From Candidatus Hadarchaeota archaeon (GTDB lineage Archaea > Hadarchaeota > Hadarchaeia > Hadarchaeales > Hadarchaeaceae): a stretch of DNA of 32,000 nt. Below are positions 9,508 to 31,635 of this stretch, in pieces; the stretch's first letter is position 1, and each line of letters starts with the position of its first letter. Location: contig CAZETV010000001.1 in assembly GCA_964514965.1 (NCBI GenBank), positions 843,063-875,062 on the forward strand, written 5' to 3'. The position numbers and the translations under genes are program-made. The notes beneath the pieces are model-generated. The model searched no databases and was not told the origin of the DNA. It saw nothing but the letters and a program-made list of their open reading frames with translations.

Positions 9508-10062
9508 CTAACACTTTTGGCGCAGGTAAAGGTTGTTTCCTTTTGTGTCAACAGCCACCACGAGCGGCCCAAAATCTCGAACCCTGAGCACCCAGAGAGC
9601 CTCCGCGTCCCCGAGGTCGTGCCAGAGCACCCGTTCGATTTTTTCTATCGATTGGGCAGCGAGCACGGCAGCGCCGCCGGTGAAAGCCAGGTAGATGCAG
9701 CCGCGCCGAGCCAGTTCCACAGCAATCTCTCCACCGAGGCCACCCTTACCCACTAGCGCCCTCACGCCGGTTCGCCTGATGAATTCGGCCTGCATTCGGT
9801 CGAGGCGGGCGCTCGTCGTTGGTCCGGCTGAAACTATTTTTTTGCCGCGAGGAGTTTTTTTGGCGAGGGGTCCGCAATGGTAGACCACACCGCCGCGCAT
9901 ATCGATTGGCAATCTTTTCCGGGAGCGGAGGAAATCTAGAACCCGAGCGTACGACTTGTCTCTTGCAGTGAATATAGTTCCGCTTACGCTCACTAGGTCT
10001 CCGACTCTGAGCTTTGTCACTTCCCGCCCAGTCAACGGCGGCCTCAATTTGATGAGTGTCAC
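9508..10062 (-). CDS. Class I (Fe-S) fumarate hydratase / tartrate dehydratase family, beta subunit
   Basis: 184 aa. VSGTIFTARDKSYARV...VYHCGP...SAGPTTSARLD...LVGKGG...FTGGAAVLAA is the Fe-S hydro-lyase beta-type catalytic domain. One-nucleotide abutment with the alpha subunit gene. Confidence 0.88.
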   Translation of the reverse strand: MTLIKLRPPLTGREVTKLRVGDLVSVSGTIFTARDKSYARVLDFLRSRKRLPIDMRGGVVYHCGPLAKKTPRGKKIVSAGPTTSARLDRMQAEFIRRTGVRALVGKGGLGGEIAVELARRGCIYLAFTGGAAVLAAQSIEKIERVLWHDLGDAEALWVLRVRDFGPLVVAVDTKGNNLYLRQKC

Positions 10063-10958
10063 TAAGGAGCCTCCACTCGCAGGTTATCTCCAACCAATCG
10101 CGCAGATGCTCGGCGTGCCGCCCAGCATTGGAAGTTGATGGCAACCGGTAAACTCGCGGTGTGGCACGCTGCTTTGGCCGCGCGAACTCCTAATACGGTG
10201 GTTCGTCCGCCCAGGCCTATCGGACCTATGCCGAGTTTGTTCGCCTCGTTCGTTAGCTCTCGCTCCATGTGCGCGAGTTTTTTGTCGGGGTTCTTCGCGC
10301 TGAGGGGACGGAGCAAGACTTTCTTCGCGAGCAGGCAAGCAGTATCCGCTGAACCTCCGATACCCACGCCCACGATGACCGGCGGGCAGAGTTGTCCTCC
10401 AGCTTCCGCGAGAGTCAATAGCACAGCCCTTTTGATGGCAATTTTTTCATCAATCGGCTTGAGCATGAACAACCTGCTCCAGTTCTCCGCACCAGCGCCT
10501 TTGATCAGCAGGTCGATTGAGAGTTTTTTCCCCGGCACGAGTTCAAGGTGAACAGACGGTTGTCCCATGCCGAGGTTGGTGTTGGTGTTTTTGCGCGTGA
10601 GCGGGTCTACGACGTTTGCGCGCAGCGGCACCTCTCGAGTGGCTTGAGCGACGGCTTTGTAGATGGATTTATTCAGGTCGAAATCCAGCTTGAGTTCTGA
10701 GCCCAGCTGAATGAAAAAGGTGAAAGTACCTGTGTCTTGGCAGATGGGCGCTCCCAGATTTTTCGCCAGCTTGAGATTTTTCAGCATGCAGTCGAGTTGC
10801 AGCTTGGCGATGCGGTTTCGCTCGCGGACTCTGCTCCGTTTGAGAGCACTCACGACATCTTCGGACAAAGTTATTTCGGCATGGCGAAGCATTTCAACAA
10901 TAGCGGCTCGAAATTTGGCTTCGGCCAGCATGCAATCGAATGTTGATAAGATAAGCAA
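10062..10958 (-). CDS. Class I (Fe-S) fumarate hydratase / tartrate dehydratase family, alpha subunit
   Basis: 298 aa. PICQDTGTFTFFIQLG...VPLRANVVDPLTRKNTNTNLG...CPPVIVGVGIGGSAD are the conserved motifs of the alpha-type domain. The true start may be the downstream M (MLAEAKF...). Confidence 0.88.
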   Translation of the reverse strand: MLILSTFDCMLAEAKFRAAIVEMLRHAEITLSEDVVSALKRSRVRERNRIAKLQLDCMLKNLKLAKNLGAPICQDTGTFTFFIQLGSELKLDFDLNKSIYKAVAQATREVPLRANVVDPLTRKNTNTNLGMGQPSVHLELVPGKKLSIDLLIKGAGAENWSRLFMLKPIDEKIAIKRAVLLTLAEAGGQLCPPVIVGVGIGGSADTACLLAKKVLLRPLSAKNPDKKLAHMERELTNEANKLGIGPIGLGGRTTVLGVRAAKAACHTASLPVAINFQCWAARRASARLVGDNLRVEAP

Positions 10959-10982: not shown

Positions 10983-11375
10983 TTGGGATGTGAGTTCATG
11001 CGCTTGGTCGATCGAAATACCGGTAAAATCTTGGCTAGCGAGGTTGAGTTAGCGGACACATTTTGGAGGCGTTTTCGAGGGCTGATGTTAAGGCGCAAGT
11101 TTCAGCGGGGTAGGGCGCTGTTGTTCAAGTTTTCCAAGCCCGGTCGCTACGCCGTGCACATGTGGTTCGTATGGTTTCCCATCGACTTGGTCTATCTTGA
11201 TTCGAGTTTCAGAGTTGTCGAGCTTCGCGCAGGTCTCAAATCTTGGCGATTTTACAGACCCAAGGCAGTTGTTAATTATCTCGTCGAGGCTCCTGTTGGG
11301 ACTATTTCTCATGCAGGTGTAAAGGTTGGTCACAAAATTTCGTTTGAGGGAAAAAGTTTTAACCCACTAGAATAA
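10983..11375 (+). CDS. DUF192 (COG1430) family protein
   Basis: 130 aa. The pattern LADTFWRRFRGLMLRR...LLF...AVHMWFVWFPIDLVYLD...VVEL...LVEAPVG fits the DUF192 family. The likely start is the internal ATG at 10998. Confidence 0.7.
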   Translation: MGCEFMRLVDRNTGKILASEVELADTFWRRFRGLMLRRKFQRGRALLFKFSKPGRYAVHMWFVWFPIDLVYLDSSFRVVELRAGLKSWRFYRPKAVVNYLVEAPVGTISHAGVKVGHKISFEGKSFNPLE

Positions 11376-18411: not shown

Positions 18412-18503
18412 GGGCCCGTGGTCTAGCCTGGATAAGACATCTGGCTTCGGACTTTGCGGAGGGAGAAACCAGAAAATCGAGGGTTCGAATCCCTCCGGGC
18501 CCG
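18412..18503 (+). tRNA. tRNA-Arg(UCG) with a canonical 17-nt intron at 37/38
   Basis: Manual cloverleaf: acceptor GGGCCCG/CGGGCCC; D arm GTCT-AGCCTGGATA-AGAC; anticodon stem TCTGG/CCAGA; loop CT-TCG-G|intron|A; T arm GAGGG-TTCGAAT-CCCTC; discriminator G. The intron is 18451-18467 (ACTTTGCGGAGGGAGAA). It folds as a textbook BHB: CUUC(32-35)/GGAG forms the 4-bp helix, flanked by 3-nt bulges GG|A and AA|A. Confidence 0.85.
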
Positions 18504-21134: not shown

Positions 21135-22152
21135 TCACCTTATCCTCGGCTTTGTCCCCCTACCATGTCTGAATCCAGTCTCCACTTTCTCGGATACCTG
21201 TTCTCTCACCTCATGTCCAGTGAGGTGCAAAAATACATCTTCAAGCGTGGGTTCAAGATTGTTTATCGATATTATTTTTCCTTTATTTGCCCGTATTGCG
21301 TCAACTATATCATCAAATGATTCATCTCCCTTGGCGCGGACTTTAACGCGCGTCTCGCTCTCCCTAATGACAGATTTAACAGACTCCAGCGATTTTATCA
21401 GCGATAGCAGTTGATTATTGAGATTGGAAATGTTTAATTCAAAGGTATTCCCGCCGTTAACCATCTTTTTTAAATTATGTGAGGTGTTGAGGTCGATTAT
21501 CTTTCCATAGTCCATTATGCCGATTCGATTGCATAAAATGTCTGCTTCGACCATCATGTGCGTTGTGAGAATTATCGTTATCTTTCTCTCTTGGTTAATT
21601 TTGCGTATGAACTCACGGATCTCACTACTAGATTGCGGGTCCAAACCGAGAGTTGGCTCCATCCAAAAATAACACCTTGGGCATGTTGAGAAGTGCTCTG
21701 ATTATGTTGATTCTCTGTTTCATGCCGGTCGAGTACGTTCCCACTTGCTTGTTTTGCCATTTCTCCATATGAACGAGTTCGAGCATTTCCTTAATCCTAC
21801 TCCTTAGCAAATCATTTGGGATATCATACAATTTTCCGAAAAACTTTAGATTCTCCTTGGCAGTCAATCGGTCGTACATAATCATCTTTTCGGATACTAA
21901 ACCAACGAGCTCTCTTACCTTGTTGTCATCTTTCACTATGTCATGGCCACCAATTGTAGCTGTGCCTTTCGTCGGCCTAGTTAGCGTGCAGAGCATCCTT
22001 ATCGTCGTGCTTTTGCCCGCGCCGTTAGGCCCTAATAGGCCGAATATCTCGCCTTCCTTCACGTCAAAGGAAGCATGGTCAACTGCCGTAATTCCATTGA
22101 ATTTTTTTGTTAAGTTTTTTACTTTAATCCTATTTTTTCCCATCAAATACAC
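21135..22152 (-). pseudogene. ABC transporter ATP-binding protein, interrupted by a 1-nt frameshift inside Walker B
   Basis: The gene appears as two track ORFs. 21628..22152 carries Walker A (GPNGAGKST), the Q-loop and the signature (YSTGMKQR), and ends KVLFLDGANSRFGPAI*. 21135..21662 begins MEPTLGLDPQSS and contains the H-loop (LTTHMM). The minus-strand sequence reads TTTTTGGATGGAGCCAACT. Removing one G (plus-strand CC at 21659-21660) restores FLDEPTLGLDP. Confidence 0.85.
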
Positions 22153-25629: not shown

Positions 25630-25760
25630 GGTGTGACGTGGGCAAAAGGTATGAGTTCTACAGCAAGCCCTAAACTACGCAATTTTAGGTCGGAATCCCG
25701 TTCGCCCCCGCTTCATTTTGAGGGCTCGGAAGCTTCTTTTAATTTTTCGTTGTTCTAAGC

Positions 25761-25803
25761 AAAAAATAGGTGTGGGGGAGAGAACTTTTGTCATTCCTCC
25801 CCC
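25761..25803 (-). terminator. Hairpin plus T6 tract downstream of the small Cys-tailed ORF (minus strand)
   Basis: Minus-strand reading: GGGGGAGGAA (25803-25794), a 9-nt loop, TTCTCTCCCCC (25784-25774), then a 7-nt spacer and TTTTTT (25766-25761). It begins 26 nt after the stop codon at 25829-25831. Confidence 0.5.
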
Positions 25804-25828
25804 TGATTAGCTTTTGATTAAGGTCGTT

Positions 25829-26020
25829 TCATCCGCAGCAGCACACTACCAATCCCAGAGCGCTGGCTCTAACACCTCGCTCTAATTTTTCGATTACCAA
25901 GTTGGGAACAGTCCTTATTTCCTCGGCCAAAGCAGCCTCAATTTGTGGTGTAGTCTTGATTTGAAGGACTTCCCCCAATGCTGGTTGCTTCGCTAACTTT
26001 GCCCTTTGCGTAAGTATCAC
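25829..26020 (-). CDS. Candidate RiPP precursor peptide (63 codons) with C-terminal ...SALGLVVCCCG
   Basis: The ORF starts 28 nt downstream of the radical SAM/SPASM gene on the same strand and is followed by a hairpin/T-tract. The sequence MILTQRAKLAKQPALGEVLQIKTTPQIEAALAEEIRTVPNLVIEKLERGVRASALGLVVCCCG has a ~50-aa Cys-free, charged, helix-prone leader-like part. A short hydrophobic tail follows, ending in three consecutive Cys plus Gly. The start is uncertain. GTG 26020 directly abuts the GGAGG motif (26027-26023) with no spacer, and the only other in-frame start is TTG 25978. Confidence 0.5.
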   Translation of the reverse strand: MILTQRAKLAKQPALGEVLQIKTTPQIEAALAEEIRTVPNLVIEKLERGVRASALGLVVCCCG

Positions 26021-26048
26021 CTCCTTTTTCGATACTGAATTTAATTTA

Positions 26049-27458
26049 TTAATGTTTCATAAGAGCTTTTTGGCAGCCCGGCGGTTTCCCGAAGAAATTC
26101 CCGTCATTGTAATAAGCTCTCAGACGGCAAATCTTTAAAGTGCAGGTGCTTGATAAAGAGCAGCTTTTACATTCATTTAGATTTTGTAATTCTATAGAAC
26201 CCCTAAAGAGTTTCCAGCTCTCGGATATCCAAATATCCTCAATGTTCTGTAGTCTTGCTGAGCCCATAGCAAATTTATCATCGTGAAAAGCGTACACACA
26301 TGGAAAAACGATTCCATCGGATCTGATTGCCATCCTTGTGGTGCCGGCTGTGCAAAAGATTTTGGAGTTCCCTTCTGTAGTATCTAGGTCCTTATATTCC
26401 GGTACAGACGGGTCTAGGTAACCAACATAAATACTATCGCCGTATTCACTAGTGAGCTGTTTAGCCGTGTGGGAAATATTGATAATTTCAGACGGCCCCA
26501 GTAAAAGATCATCTTGGTGTTTTGCCCTTCCGAGAGGATCTAGGAGTATAAAATTGATAGATTTTGCACCCAGTTCAATTGCAGTTTCAACGAGGTCTTT
26601 CAACTGATGGATATTTTTATTGTGAACCGTCGTTGATATATGAAAACATGCCCCAGCTTGAGAAAGAAACTTTAGACCTTTAATTACTTTATCAAAACAT
26701 TCCTGACCTCTCAGCATGTTATGTGTTTCGCTGTCAGCACCGTCTAGAGAAACAGTTGTTGAGAAATTGGGCGATGAGAGAATAACCGCAAGTGATTCAT
26801 CGATTAAAGTGCCGTTTGTCAATAATTCTATTCTTATCCTCTTTGAAGTTAAGTATTGTATTATGGTCTTTGCCTTAGGGTACACTAAGGGTTCACCGCC
26901 TGAGATTATAACTCGGAATGTCTCCAAACTTTCAAACTGATCAAATATCTTAAACCATGAGTCAGCTTCTAGTTGGTTAGATATTTTCTGACCCGCATCA
27001 TAGACGCAGTGTCGGCATTTTAGATTACAAGCGTTTGTAAAATGTACTTCAGCTTCATATGGTGTTGATGTGACTGGAACATCAGATTTGATAAAAGTTT
27101 GATGATGCTTGACGTGTGGTGAAAGAACTTTCTCAGATTTTGTTAAGATATTACTAGTAAGATCTTTTTTTAAAAGATTGATTATTTCTACAGCTTGTAG
27201 CTCGATGCCTTTCTCACGTAAATAATTACAAACTTGTTCAATCGTGAGAGAATTATTCTGCAACAATTTTAGTATTATGAAGAGTGTTCCACTGATTTTG
27301 TATTTGTCGCCGCTATCTATTTTAAAAGCCGAATAGTGTGTGTGGAAATTCGGGTCGCTTCTTACTATCCAACGATTGGACAAAGTGTAGCGTTCTCGGG
27401 GTGAGATGAAAAAGTCTTCTCCAGTCTCTACATCTTTGGGATGATTATTTCGCGTCAT
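26049..27458 (-). CDS. Radical SAM / SPASM-domain peptide-maturase-like enzyme with N-terminal PqqD-like (RRE) domain
   Basis: 469 aa. The rSAM cluster motif is HFTNACNLKCRHCVY (CX3CX2C), followed by GGEPL (SGGEPLVYP). The SPASM region reads CTAGTTRMAIRSDGIVFPC ... CKSCSLSSTCTLKIC ... GC. The ~130-aa N-terminal extension is a beta segment followed by helices (YKISGTLFIILKLLQNNSLTIEQVCNYLREKGIELQAVEIINLLKKDLTSNIL). This looks like the PqqD/RRE winged-helix leader-binding domain. The gene is visibly AT-rich relative to flanking core genes. Confidence 0.8.
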   Translation of the reverse strand: MTRNNHPKDVETGEDFFISPRERYTLSNRWIVRSDPNFHTHYSAFKIDSGDKYKISGTLFIILKLLQNNSLTIEQVCNYLREKGIELQAVEIINLLKKDLTSNILTKSEKVLSPHVKHHQTFIKSDVPVTSTPYEAEVHFTNACNLKCRHCVYDAGQKISNQLEADSWFKIFDQFESLETFRVIISGGEPLVYPKAKTIIQYLTSKRIRIELLTNGTLIDESLAVILSSPNFSTTVSLDGADSETHNMLRGQECFDKVIKGLKFLSQAGACFHISTTVHNKNIHQLKDLVETAIELGAKSINFILLDPLGRAKHQDDLLLGPSEIINISHTAKQLTSEYGDSIYVGYLDPSVPEYKDLDTTEGNSKIFCTAGTTRMAIRSDGIVFPCVYAFHDDKFAMGSARLQNIEDIWISESWKLFRGSIELQNLNECKSCSLSSTCTLKICRLRAYYNDGNFFGKPPGCQKALMKH

Positions 27459-27487
27459 GTTACTCTTTATTCATGGCGAATGCGCGG

Positions 27488-27500
27488 CATATAAGTTTAC
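27488..27500 (-). promoter_or_regulatory. Candidate BRE/TATA element for the radical SAM gene
   Basis: The minus strand reads GTAAACTTATATG. The TATA-like core is centred ~34 nt upstream of ATG 27458, which implies a very short leader. Confidence 0.35.
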
Positions 27501-27754
27501 AGAAATGTATTCGGTAAAAATCTCATTTTTCGCGCTGGGTTCAACCTACTATCCTTCTAATTATTTCTTTACTTTCCGTCGCTGCAGCACATGCTTGCTG
27601 AGCATAGCTTTTAGTTGGCGCAACATTCAGAGAGCGTAACCCGTTGCCCCTACCGCAAGCACGCTAACTCCGAGTTCGACTAAATTTATTCTTCAAAATA
27701 AGTTGTTTGCAAACTTTTAGTCCTAGTTGGCATGGCCGCGTTTAAAAACCAGTT

Positions 27755-30154: not shown

Positions 30155-30628
30155 ATGGGTGGTGAACTTATGGTGATGTTCTCCACACTTGGTATTTTGA
30201 AATCTGCTTTAGGTAACCCTATCTCTCGTGTAGTTCTTATCCGCTCCACTGCGCGATGTTCGAAATGCAACGATAGCAGGCTCAGAATAGCACTTGCTAG
30301 GTACGCGGGGGTTAATACCAAAGTCTGCCTGAGCTGTCGCATGTACAGCTTTGTAATTGGGAGTATAATCGACATCGGACGTGTACTGTTCCGAACCTCT
30401 AAGCGCGAGATGAGAAATTTTTTTAATAGTCAGACCACCCAGCGTGGGCTGGCGAGCATCGTGCGTGGAATAGCCGAGCACGGCATTACTCAGCCTCAGC
30501 AGCTGGGGCGCCTTTCCTTGTGGTTTGGGATTTCACTCATGCCTGTAACCTCAATTGCAAACACTGTTACCAGCGAGCCAATCGTCCGCTGCCCGATGAG
30601 CTCACCACCGACGAGGCCAAACGTTTAA
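30155..30628 (+). CDS. ORF of uncertain status: probable N-terminal extension of the downstream radical SAM gene (separated by a 1-nt frameshift), or a separate CxxC...CxxC protein
   Basis: 157-codon ORF carrying ARCSKCN...x18...CLSC. It overlaps the rSAM ORF by 109 nt in another frame. Its segment ...RGIAEHGITQPQQLG would join APFLVVWDFTHACNLNC in frame if one G were added to the G4 run at 30505-30508. Antisense ORFs also lie open here, so coding status is weak. Confidence 0.3.
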   Translation: MGGELMVMFSTLGILKSALGNPISRVVLIRSTARCSKCNDSRLRIALARYAGVNTKVCLSCRMYSFVIGSIIDIGRVLFRTSKREMRNFFNSQTTQRGLASIVRGIAEHGITQPQQLGRLSLWFGISLMPVTSIANTVTSEPIVRCPMSSPPTRPNV

Positions 30629-31635
30629 TCAAAGAACTTGCGGACGCAGATGTGGTAGCGTTAGCATTTTCTGGAGGTGAGCCGCTTATGCGCCGCGACT
30701 TTTACGAGCTGGCGGCGTATGCGCGGAGCCTCGGCCTCTACGTGGCTCTAGCGACAAACGGCACGCTCATAACGAAAGAGGTGGCGAAACGGCTCAAGAA
30801 GCTCGACATCTATGTAGAGATAAGTCTCGATGGTGCCAGTGCTGAGGTCCACGATGAATTTAGGGGGGTTCCGGGAATGTTTGACAGGACTATTAATGGA
30901 ATAAAAAACTGTGTCGAAGTAGGCATCTACACATGCATTGCCACTACAGCTACCAAGCTCAATTTAAAAGAGATGCAAGAGACGTATGAGCTAGCCTTAT
31001 CGCTTGGGTGTAAGCGTCAAATGATTTTTAACTTTATCCCAACTGGACGCGGAGCAGAAATGTTTAACCTCGACCTTTCTCCAGATGAGCGCGAGCAGTT
31101 GCTTGAGCAGAGCTATGCCAACCTAGTTAGTGGTAGGGGGTGTGATGTTTTGGGGACTGCCCCCCAGCTTGCCCGCATTGCCTTGGAGCATGCGGAAGGA
31201 GTCGAAGGGGGCCCTCTTGTATCCGCACATTTTGCGGCTCCGGCCGACCTCGGAGAACATACGAGGCTGCTTGCCGAATTCCTAGGTGGCTGCGGTGCTG
31301 GGCGCGTTTATTGTGCGATTGAGTCGAACGGTGATGTGCTGCCCTGCGTTTTCATGCCCATCAAAGTCGGCAACATCCGCGAGAAACCCTTCCTTAAGAT
31401 ATGGCGCACCTCACAAGTGTTGCGTGATCTGCGCGACCGGAGCAAGTTAAAAGGGCATTGTGGTGAGTGCGAGTATCGCTACGCTTGCGGTGGTTGCCGC
31501 GCTCGTGCTTATGGCTATTTTGAAGATTACAACATGCCGGACCCAGGGTGCGTTAACAACTTAAAATATTGGCAGAATTTCAAAGTAAAAGTTGAGGGTG
31601 AACAACAAGTTTCTGCTGAGACGAAAGCAGCATAG
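30520..31635 (+). CDS. Radical SAM / SPASM protein, NirJ/AhbC/AhbD-like
   Basis: 371 aa from GTG 30520. WDFTHACNLNCKHCY (CX3CX2C), ELTTDEAKRLIKELADADVVALAFSGGEPLMRRD, LATNGTLI, and SPASM CAIESNGDVLPC ... CGECEYRYACGGCRARAY. This is the pattern of the heme/heme-d1 biosynthesis rSAM clade. Only 8 residues precede the first cluster Cys with this start, and the frame is open upstream to 30430 without another start codon. Confidence 0.8.
   Translation: MVWDFTHACNLNCKHCYQRANRPLPDELTTDEAKRLIKELADADVVALAFSGGEPLMRRDFYELAAYARSLGLYVALATNGTLITKEVAKRLKKLDIYVEISLDGASAEVHDEFRGVPGMFDRTINGIKNCVEVGIYTCIATTATKLNLKEMQETYELALSLGCKRQMIFNFIPTGRGAEMFNLDLSPDEREQLLEQSYANLVSGRGCDVLGTAPQLARIALEHAEGVEGGPLVSAHFAAPADLGEHTRLLAEFLGGCGAGRVYCAIESNGDVLPCVFMPIKVGNIREKPFLKIWRTSQVLRDLRDRSKLKGHCGECEYRYACGGCRARAYGYFEDYNMPDPGCVNNLKYWQNFKVKVEGEQQVSAETKAA

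Follow-up and report, generated by a model that had tools for sequence, protein, structure and literature searches.

Does the short, cysteine-ending open reading frame (ORF) that follows an archaeal radical enzyme gene encode the substrate of that enzyme and, if it does, what reaction takes place on it? The question is raised by a 32,000-nt stretch of DNA, here called the window, from a Candidatus Hadarchaeota archaeon (GenBank assembly GCA_964514965.1, contig CAZETV010000001.1, positions 843,063 to 875,062). The initial annotation of the locus, made from the sequence alone, had proposed that a radical S-adenosylmethionine (rSAM)/SPASM enzyme and the adjacent small ORF form a maturase-precursor couple of the kind that yields RiPPs (peptides synthesized by ribosomes and modified post-translationally). 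The analysis described here upholds that pairing. The enzyme and peptide are very likely maturase and precursor, since an adjacent small ORF is conserved in 17 lineages, the protein sequence of the peptide is conserved between phyla and the N-terminal domain of the enzyme is modelled with a fold like that of the RiPP recognition element (RRE). The whole is probably a two-gene, RiPP-type cassette that works as outlined below.

The enzyme and its neighbouring peptide gene

The description of the larger gene product as a 469-residue enzyme with a CX3CX2C radical SAM core and a SPASM domain was borne out by the ORF listing, by Pfam and by the pattern of invariant cysteines. The Pfam models Radical_SAM (PF04055) and SPASM (PF13186) matched residues 139-292 and 369-433 with 80 and 46 bits against cut-offs of 29.5 and 21.5, respectively. 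In an alignment of 42 homologues, C144, C148 and C151 of the CX3CX2C motif were invariant, as were exactly seven cysteines of the SPASM domain (C369, C387, C430, C433, C439, C444 and C462). The enzyme family is coherent, with ~44 full-length homologues at identities of 32-100%, and the window enzyme shares 88% identity with that of Hadesarchaea archaeon DG-33. The AlphaFold2 model of the enzyme had a predicted local distance difference test (pLDDT) value of 89 and a predicted template modelling (pTM) score of 0.89. The top match of this model in a Foldseek comparison with the PDB was SuiB bound to its precursor, with template modelling (TM) scores of 0.72/0.77 over 475 aligned columns and a sequence identity of 18-19% in the alignment, followed by SkfB, CteB and TigE, all of which are RiPP maturases. 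The anaerobic sulfatase-maturating enzyme (anSME), PqqE and TigE, a cyclopropyl synthase, were also among the best structure or profile matches. When the family profile was compared with solved structures, SkfB was the best sequence match (5e-40).

The N-terminal domain had been assigned as PqqD-like, and the predicted fold agrees with the assignment. The AlphaFold2 model places strands at residues 23-26, 30-34, 42-46 and 51-54, helices at 57-68, 73-82 and 89-99, and then a strand at 105-107, with pLDDT values of 91-95 over residues 21-90. An hhalign comparison of the family N-terminal domain with the N-terminal regions of ten rSAM/SPASM proteins, more distantly related and scoring for the PqqD model of Pfam (PF05402), gave a probability of 92.9% (E = 3.8e-7). 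SuiB and CteB have N-terminal RREs. The Foldseek alignments to these two enzymes cover about the full length of both chains, and with the full-length family profile the alignment to SuiB opens at position 34 and that to CteB at position 27, both within the N-terminal region.

The small ORF, said to lie 28 nt downstream on the same strand and to end in ALGLVVCCCG-stop, is present and begins exactly 28 nt past the stop codon of the enzyme gene (Table 1). Loci holding family enzymes, designated by L-numbers, were retrieved from genome and metagenome collections with a 23-sequence subset of the alignment as query, and contigs of specific homologues were added. In 17 distinct lineages, which belong to anaerobic bacteria and Hadesarchaea and include Hadesarchaea, WOR-3, Aminicenantes, Bacillota, Elusimicrobia and Bacteroidota, a gene for a peptide of 50-76 residues adjoins the enzyme gene, at enzyme identities of 30-90% (Table 2). 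A conserved cysteine cluster in the C-terminal region of small ORFs beside homologous enzymes, suggested beforehand as a check on the pairing, was found in all 17. A homologous small ORF stands beside the enzyme gene in every lineage with sufficient flanking DNA; the sole locus in which no peptide was found is a 1.85-kb contig with flanks of just 143 and 318 nt. The pair is also carried by a cultured organism, Clostridium sp. BNL1100 (CP003259.1; Bacillota; locus L129, 6592-8186). A direct search with the window peptide returned two close relatives only. A search with a peptide profile gave 27 matches at E ≤ 0.001 among 1.84 billion cluster representatives; 25 of them are peptides of 50-76 residues, all with adjacent cysteines and usually with the sequence FG[LV]-x-x-CC. 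In a reciprocal check, each of three profile-found peptides was located 5-30 nt downstream of a gene for an rSAM/SPASM protein of 455-471 residues. At the L123/L124 locus, from a Bacillota-type metagenome, a gene for an IS110-family transposase (9518-10693) lies between the rSAM gene and an intact peptide gene (10990-11160).

These results bear on the proposal that the adjacency is coincidental, the enzyme being a housekeeping SPASM protein (e.g., of heme or sulfatase maturation) and the small ORF no gene at all. The top scores of the window enzyme among curated NCBIfam models are those of the heme enzymes NirJ2 and AhbD, and the small ORF of the window has no match in Pfam or NCBIfam, both of which would suit the proposal. 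However, the scores of 148 bits (NirJ2) and 131 bits (AhbD) are far below the cut-offs of 500 bits, and the matches to both models start at approximately residue 140 and leave outside the N-terminal domain, which the window enzyme has in addition to what is found in heme and heme d1 enzymes (AhbD, NirJ). Moreover, the peptide adjoins the enzyme in 17 lineages and in two orientations with G-x-x-x-C-C invariant, and a chance association is thereby effectively refuted. A third model, ScmE, scored 133 bits against a cut-off of 400.

Peptide alignments revealed only three invariant columns, G56, C60 and C61, within a core of the conserved form G-hydrophobic-x-x-C-C in which the residues ahead of the cysteine pair are conserved in hydrophobic character. 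The earlier definition of the core as three adjacent cysteines at the extreme C-terminus was not sustained. The third cysteine is confined to the Hadesarchaea lineage, other lineages having CCN, CCT, CCI, CCY or a bare CC, and the pair is not always terminal, being followed in several lineages by 5-20 residues. A Rab-like C-terminal CC/CCXX prenylation motif was considered and rejected on account of this internal position. The leader contains a motif with the family consensus [ST]P[EQ][IL]E-x-ALAEQ[MI][RK]-x-LP; it is present in most members, including most of the 25 profile-matched peptides, and absent from P0134, a form with a Gly-Gly (GG) leader. When the peptide alone was modelled by AlphaFold2, the pLDDT was 63 with a helix at residues 25-47, which lends weak support to the helical leader originally described. 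In a comparison of 12 family peptides with NCBIfam and Pfam, including the SCIFF model, only the GG forms gave matches, all sub-threshold and in the leader portion; TIGR04149 scored 15.7 against a cut-off of 25 with the Ancylomarina peptide, in the leader portion only.

Table 1. Features of the cassette, numbered by position in the window.
Feature	Position	Strand	Basis
rSAM/SPASM enzyme gene, putative peptide maturase (469 aa, ATG start)	26049-27458	minus	ORF listing
RRE/PqqD-like winged-helix domain, ~aa 20-107	27138-27401	minus	AlphaFold2 secondary structure, hhalign and Foldseek
Radical SAM core, aa 139-292	26583-27044	minus	Pfam and 42-sequence alignment
CX3CX2C motif (C144, C148, C151)	27006-27029	minus	alignment
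SPASM auxiliary-cluster domain, aa 369-462, seven Cys	26073-26354	minus	Pfam and alignment
Putative precursor peptide ORF, 63 codons from GTG, ending ALGLVVCCCG-stop	25829-26020	minus	ORF listing
Shine-Dalgarno-like GGAGGTGAT, overlapping the in-frame GTG	26016-26024	minus	sequence reading
Native start-region context of the peptide ORF, GGAGGTGATACTTACG			
Leader motif TTPQIEAALAEEIR	25913-25954	minus	peptide alignments
Core GLVVCCCG; invariant G56 (25853-25855) and C60-C61 (25838-25843)	25832-25855	minus	alignment
Promoter-like block TTCTGTAAACTTATATGCCGCGC holding a TATA-like element	27482-27504	minus	conservation; ends 24 nt upstream of the ATG
Terminator-like hairpin GGGGGAGGAAU ... GUUC-U-CUCCCCC, then a T6 run	25761-25803	minus	fold and conservation

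Table 2. Position of the peptide gene relative to the enzyme gene, and core region of the peptide.
Lineage or locus	Peptide gene	Core region
Hadesarchaea relatives	downstream	...LGLVVCCCG
L130	downstream	...LGLIVCCNA
WOR-3	downstream	...LGLIVCCTN
Bacillota, incl. Clostridium sp. BNL1100	downstream	...FGLIACCNSL
Aminicenantes	downstream	...LGVAVCCNG
L048	downstream	...FGVISCCG
L053	downstream	...FGLIVCCNGASAMV...
L054	downstream	...GGICCNGQVIPLD...
L125	downstream	...FGVYSCC
L126	downstream	...LGVIECCNAS
Elusimicrobium-type	upstream	...LGLIVCCTSTPAKADNKTKSKNKKK
L051, two tandem copies	upstream	...LGIGICCNG(D)
L127	upstream	...GVLNCCNTNTYPPGSPDKK
Ancylomarina	upstream	...GIANCCQSAWPFPEDKKE

Proposed reaction and comparison with known maturases

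In the RRE-rSAM-SPASM maturases SuiB, CteB, SkfB, AlbA and PapB, the RRE docks the leader of the precursor, a 5'-deoxyadenosyl radical abstracts a hydrogen from the core, and auxiliary clusters help with the binding and oxidation of the substrate. In the mechanism proposed for the present pair, the small ORF would specify a precursor in which a leader of ~50 residues, bearing the family motif, precedes a short hydrophobic core, G-L-V-V-C-C-C-G. The leader would be docked by the RRE-like winged-helix domain, the radical SAM cluster would cleave S-adenosylmethionine to a 5'-deoxyadenosyl radical that takes a hydrogen from the core, and the two auxiliary clusters of the SPASM domain would manage the substrate thiolate and electrons. 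In the predicted product the pair of invariant cysteines would be joined to an upstream residue in G-hydrophobic-x-x, with the invariant glycine as the first choice, through one or two thioether links within the peptide that resemble sactionine or ranthionine. Among the possible chemistries, thioether formation is a tentative assignment, given a little less than an even chance; the hint comes from the seven-Cys SPASM domain of the family, a pattern described for CteB, QhpD and Tte1186, all of which form thioethers (PMC10352776).

A different SPASM-type chemistry, acting on or beside the Cys-Cys pair of what would still be a precursor, is rated as less likely; such other or new chemistries take up most of the probability that thioether formation leaves. 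The options would be a carbon-carbon cross-link (as with SuiB and PqqE), formylglycine or thioaldehyde formation (as with anSME), epimerisation or cyclopropanation of Leu, Val or Ile, or a reaction without precedent that gives a metal-binding motif. Consistent with such options, the best structural match, SuiB, is a carbon-carbon bond former, TigE, anSME and PqqE are among the top matches, the cut-offs of the curated thioether-maturase models were all missed and the residues ahead of the pair are conserved in hydrophobic character. On the other side, the invariant residues are two cysteines and a glycine and not the aromatic residue or the Lys/Glu pair of carbon-carbon cross-linkers, and the anSME substrate motif C/S-x-P/A-x-R is absent from the family peptides. 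The match of the seven-Cys SPASM domain to thioether formers likewise speaks against another chemistry (PMC10352776). It is also conceivable, though considered unlikely, that the vicinal Cys-Cys four residues past the glycine is the substrate of an unprecedented cross-link or cysteine transformation and represents a new RiPP class; the product may then be a tiny double thioether ring on the glycine alpha-carbon, or a sulfur-containing metal-binding motif.

Several known systems resemble the pair assigned here as maturase and precursor. The sactipeptide maturases with an N-terminal RRE (SkfB/SkfA, AlbA/SboA and StsB) are likewise RRE-rSAM-auxiliary cluster enzymes encoded beside a short Cys-containing precursor, and of these SkfB is both the sequence match noted above and a top fold match. 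Sactipeptides have spaced donor cysteines, whereas the present family has a single G-hydrophobic-x-x-C-C with vicinal cysteines at the C-terminal end of the core. The sactisynthase models SkfB, AlbA and StsB scored 96, 92 and 108 bits with the window enzyme against cut-offs of 300, 850 and 625, and the best E value for any family member with these models was ~1e-30 to 1e-35. Ranthipeptide or SCIFF systems (CteB/CteA, Tte1186 and PapB/freyrasin) share with the family an enzyme of the RRE-rSAM-SPASM type whose SPASM domain has seven cysteines (PMC10352776). They are likewise widespread in anaerobes and often minimal peptide and maturase pairs, and CteB is a full-length fold match; the PapB model (NF047865), however, scored 97 bits against 340, and in place of a six-Cys-in-45 or CX3D precursor the family core has 2-3 cysteines with the conserved pair adjacent. 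The streptide system (SuiB/StrB with SuiA/StrA) is likewise a compact peptide and maturase operon, and its three enzyme domains align to the window enzyme. SuiB forms a Lys-Trp carbon-carbon bond; the family peptides differ in having no conserved Lys or Trp. In the NxxcB beta-thioether RiPPs of streptococci the acceptor is upstream of the donor cysteine in a short N-x-x-C motif. By this description NxxcB offers the nearest parallel to a cross-link within G-hydrophobic-x-x-C-C, with the difference that the family peptides have no conserved Asn upstream of the cysteine pair. It is named among the known families (PMC11851443). The anSME model (TIGR03942) scored 85 bits with the window enzyme against 349, and no family enzyme reached the cut-off of any curated NCBIfam model. 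Of the features of the generic RRE-rSAM/SPASM RiPP class, the radical SAM core, the SPASM domain, the RRE fold and the adjacent precursor are all found, and a PF05402 sequence match is absent from the window enzyme. Judged from sequence, the enzyme-peptide pair would work like those of sacti- and ranthipeptide pathways and belongs to an unnamed family outside all curated models run; no description of this family was found in the literature.

Alternatively, the peptide could be consumed as the scaffold of a small redox cofactor, in the way that PqqA serves pyrroloquinoline quinone (PQQ) and MftA serves mycofactocin. In favour of such a role, the MftC and PqqE models score better than most others, and the Hadesarchaea, WOR-3 and Aminicenantes loci are without a linked exporter or leader-cleavage motif. 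However, the MftC (TIGR03962) and PqqE (TIGR02109) scores of 128 against 265 and 95 against 381 bits are far under the cut-offs, and no pqq genes were found near the cassette. An all-against-all BLAST of neighbouring ORFs at 14 representative loci showed that nothing beyond the pair is conserved among them, the exporter of L051 and L127 excepted, and thus no conserved peptidase, flavoenzyme, glycosyltransferase or other accessory gene. At these two Bacteroidota-type loci, genes for an outer-membrane beta-barrel and a C39-peptidase ABC exporter come after the pair, and the two exporters share 50% identity. GG or Gly-Ala (GA) leaders occur in the peptides of these two loci (EVAGG, MVKGA) and in that of Ancylomarina (LKGG). 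This layout of L127 and L051 is like that of Bacteroidales RiPP clusters, for which GG leaders with C39 exporters have been described (PMC10352776); the Hadesarchaea-type peptides differ from those of the Bacteroidota GG-leader (TIGR04149-type) clusters in having a non-GG leader. Since GG/GA leaders with C39 exporters are the classical arrangement of a leader-cleaved, exported peptide, they argue for a peptide end product and not a cofactor scaffold, and the long Lys-rich tails past the CC of other members also fit secreted peptides. A scaffold function is accordingly regarded as very improbable.

Doubts about the assignment and expression of the peptide

Several observations weigh against the reading of the locus as a working maturase-precursor cassette. 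In the window enzyme PF05402 gave no match at E ≤ 1, and across the family weak matches were found in only 2 of 42 members (best E = 0.004). The N-terminal 125 residues alone gave nothing significant against the PDB, and a 20-sequence profile of the N-terminal domain gave marginal, unrelated matches only (best E = 4e-4, a VapC ribonuclease). Since these sequence searches were negative, the RRE assignment rests on the profile-profile comparison and the predicted fold. On this basis the RRE-rSAM-SPASM architecture is taken as real, with a divergent RRE; the PqqD-like domain of the initial annotation shows at the level of profile and fold and not as a Pfam PqqD match of the window enzyme. Furthermore, the chemistry is not transferable by homology, because no curated model for a sactipeptide, ranthipeptide or other maturase reaches its cut-off, and any modification of the peptide is a deduction. 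In sactipeptides and in the CX3D motif of PapB, the donor cysteine is N-terminal to the acceptor, unlike the cysteine pair of the family at the C-terminal end of the core. No protease or exporter linked to the cassette was found in the Hadesarchaea loci; the earlier remark to this effect is correct for these loci and does not extend to L127 and L051 with their C39-ABC exporters. The counts of synonymous and non-synonymous changes among four close Hadesarchaea relatives were ~1:1 and too few to be informative, and conservation between phyla was used in their place. The start codon of the peptide, previously noted as unclear, became more doubtful still. At the homologous position (26011-26009) the window and L045 both read ACG, where DG-33 has ATG and L042 has TTG. 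The sole canonical in-frame start is the GTG, which sits inside the Shine-Dalgarno sequence, and the ORF was not called by the gene caller on the identical contig. For these reasons expression of the peptide in this organism is uncertain.

The observations on the start codon would be explained if the cassette were decaying or silent in this genome, the enzyme remaining intact and the peptide start having been lost by a change of ATG to ACG. In addition to the ACG in place of the ATG of DG-33 or TTG of L042 and the uncalled ORF, a neighbouring small ORF conserved in relatives has an in-frame TGA in this lineage. Nevertheless, silencing is judged improbable. The independent assembly L045 has the same ACG in an otherwise intact ORF, the frame is open back to the GTG, the replacements relative to the relatives are conservative (K/R, V/I, A/S) with an identical core, and no damage is seen in the Shine-Dalgarno sequence, promoter block or terminator, the nine bases of GGAGGTGAT being invariant in the window, L045, L042 and DG-33. 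Since the rest of the ORF is intact, the replacements conservative and the core identical, the peptide is probably still translated from a non-canonical start. The ACG could reflect either the use of non-canonical starts in Hadesarchaea or incipient gene loss.

The neighbouring small ORF, of ~44 residues, lies at ~27548-27690 on the minus strand between the gene for a UbiA-type prenyltransferase and the cassette promoter, and is conserved in four Hadesarchaea relatives. It encodes a single hydrophobic stretch and a basic tail, (L/M)IVELGVGVLAVGAAGYALWMLRQRKAMLRRHVLRQREVRKYIEK; the window copy has a TGA at a Trp codon (27627-27629) and a 2-nt gap in the start region.

Judged by its flanking signals, the cassette looks like a transcription unit of its own. 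The TATA-like element first noted at 27488-27500 lies in a 23-nt block that is invariant in four Hadesarchaea relatives, with variable bases around it. Sigma-70 promoter hits of a generic scan were set aside as inapplicable to an archaeon. The hairpin and T6 run reported at the other end were also substantiated: the hairpin has a folding energy of -20.1 kcal/mol (z = -2.5 versus shuffles), and hairpin and T-run are kept in four Hadesarchaea relatives, with synteny breaking right after. A generic terminator scan did not call the hairpin and T-run at 25761-25803, since it does not accept so long a loop or so wide a gap between stem and T-run. From these features the hairpin with its T6 run likely marks the transcript end of the two-gene unit. 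The block between the terminator and TspO (25640-25760) is common to the window and L045, is replaced by unrelated sequence in DG-33 and L042, and gave no match in an Rfam scan. The pair had been described as more AT-rich than its flanks, which holds for the enzyme gene, with the lowest GC content of the 21 large window ORFs compared (0.387, and 0.353 at third codon positions; others 0.42-0.55), and not for the peptide gene (0.484).

Gene neighbourhood, origin and significance

The neighbours of the cassette in the window encode a UbiA-type prenyltransferase, TspO, an HtrA-like protease and an ABC-2 transporter. The prenyltransferase, the protease and the transporter were considered as members of the cassette and rejected, as they do not co-occur with the pair outside Hadesarchaea. 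The enzyme family is mostly bacterial. Its nearest homologue outside the Hadesarchaea group (73% identity), at L130 (2727-5346), is found among RuvC, SNase-like and HTH genes, a bacterial or mobile-element-like context that fits an inter-domain transfer of the cassette, and several other family copies stand beside transposase, toxin-antitoxin or defence-type genes. Since the enzyme gene is unusually AT-rich for its surroundings, the family and the nearest outgroups mostly or wholly bacterial and the contexts of several copies mobile-element-like, the Hadesarchaea copy appears to have been acquired horizontally from bacteria. The archaeal occurrence stressed at first is therefore not the main distinction of the family, which is mainly bacterial with an archaeal copy that seems horizontally acquired.

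Other features of the family loci and of the window were noted. The L123/L124 locus is situated among SLFN/TIR and helicase genes in a defence-island-like setting. In Clostridium sp. BNL1100, ~160 nt past the cassette and on the opposite strand, the region 8350-11167 of L129 holds an rSAM gene (457 aa, no SPASM match), a 37-residue ORF and a 401-residue ORF, and may be a second peptide-modification cluster. The window contains a second rSAM/SPASM gene at 30520-31635 on the plus strand, ~3 kb from the cassette, with a product of 371 residues as listed that lacks an N-terminal RRE. The model for heme b synthase AhbD matches it best, with 301 bits where 500 are required; NirJ2 and TIGR04053 come next, and none of the three reaches its cut-off. 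The product is 33% identical to the rSAM ORF of the family locus L053. At 18412-18503 on the plus strand Rfam called a tRNA with 57 bits, 92 nt for a 71-position model, and ARAGORN found no tRNA anywhere in the window; the sequence may be an intron-containing archaeal tRNA. An ABC transporter ATPase at 21135-22152 on the minus strand is present as two overlapping ORFs, one with ABC_tran (171 aa) and one with the DrrA C-terminal domain (175 aa), and precedes the ABC-2 permease; the split could be a frameshift or a pseudogene.

The analysis delimits a small precursor-maturase family with ~25 peptide clusters at 50% identity, a clear invariant motif and no curated model. New rSAM RiPP families appear regularly, so what makes this one of interest is the reaction at its Cys-Cys pair and not the architecture. 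With a conserved unit of just two genes and a carrier in culture, the chemistry is open to direct test. For archaea, rSAM RiPP clusters have been predicted, with none characterised according to a 2025 survey (PMC12144867), and the cassette is a concrete Hadesarchaea candidate for such a RiPP with an apparent inter-domain transfer. If the chemistry does prove to be without precedent, the family would constitute a new class of RiPP, one exchanged between bacteria and archaea, and the Hadesarchaea copy would be among the first rSAM-modified peptides tied to an archaeon.

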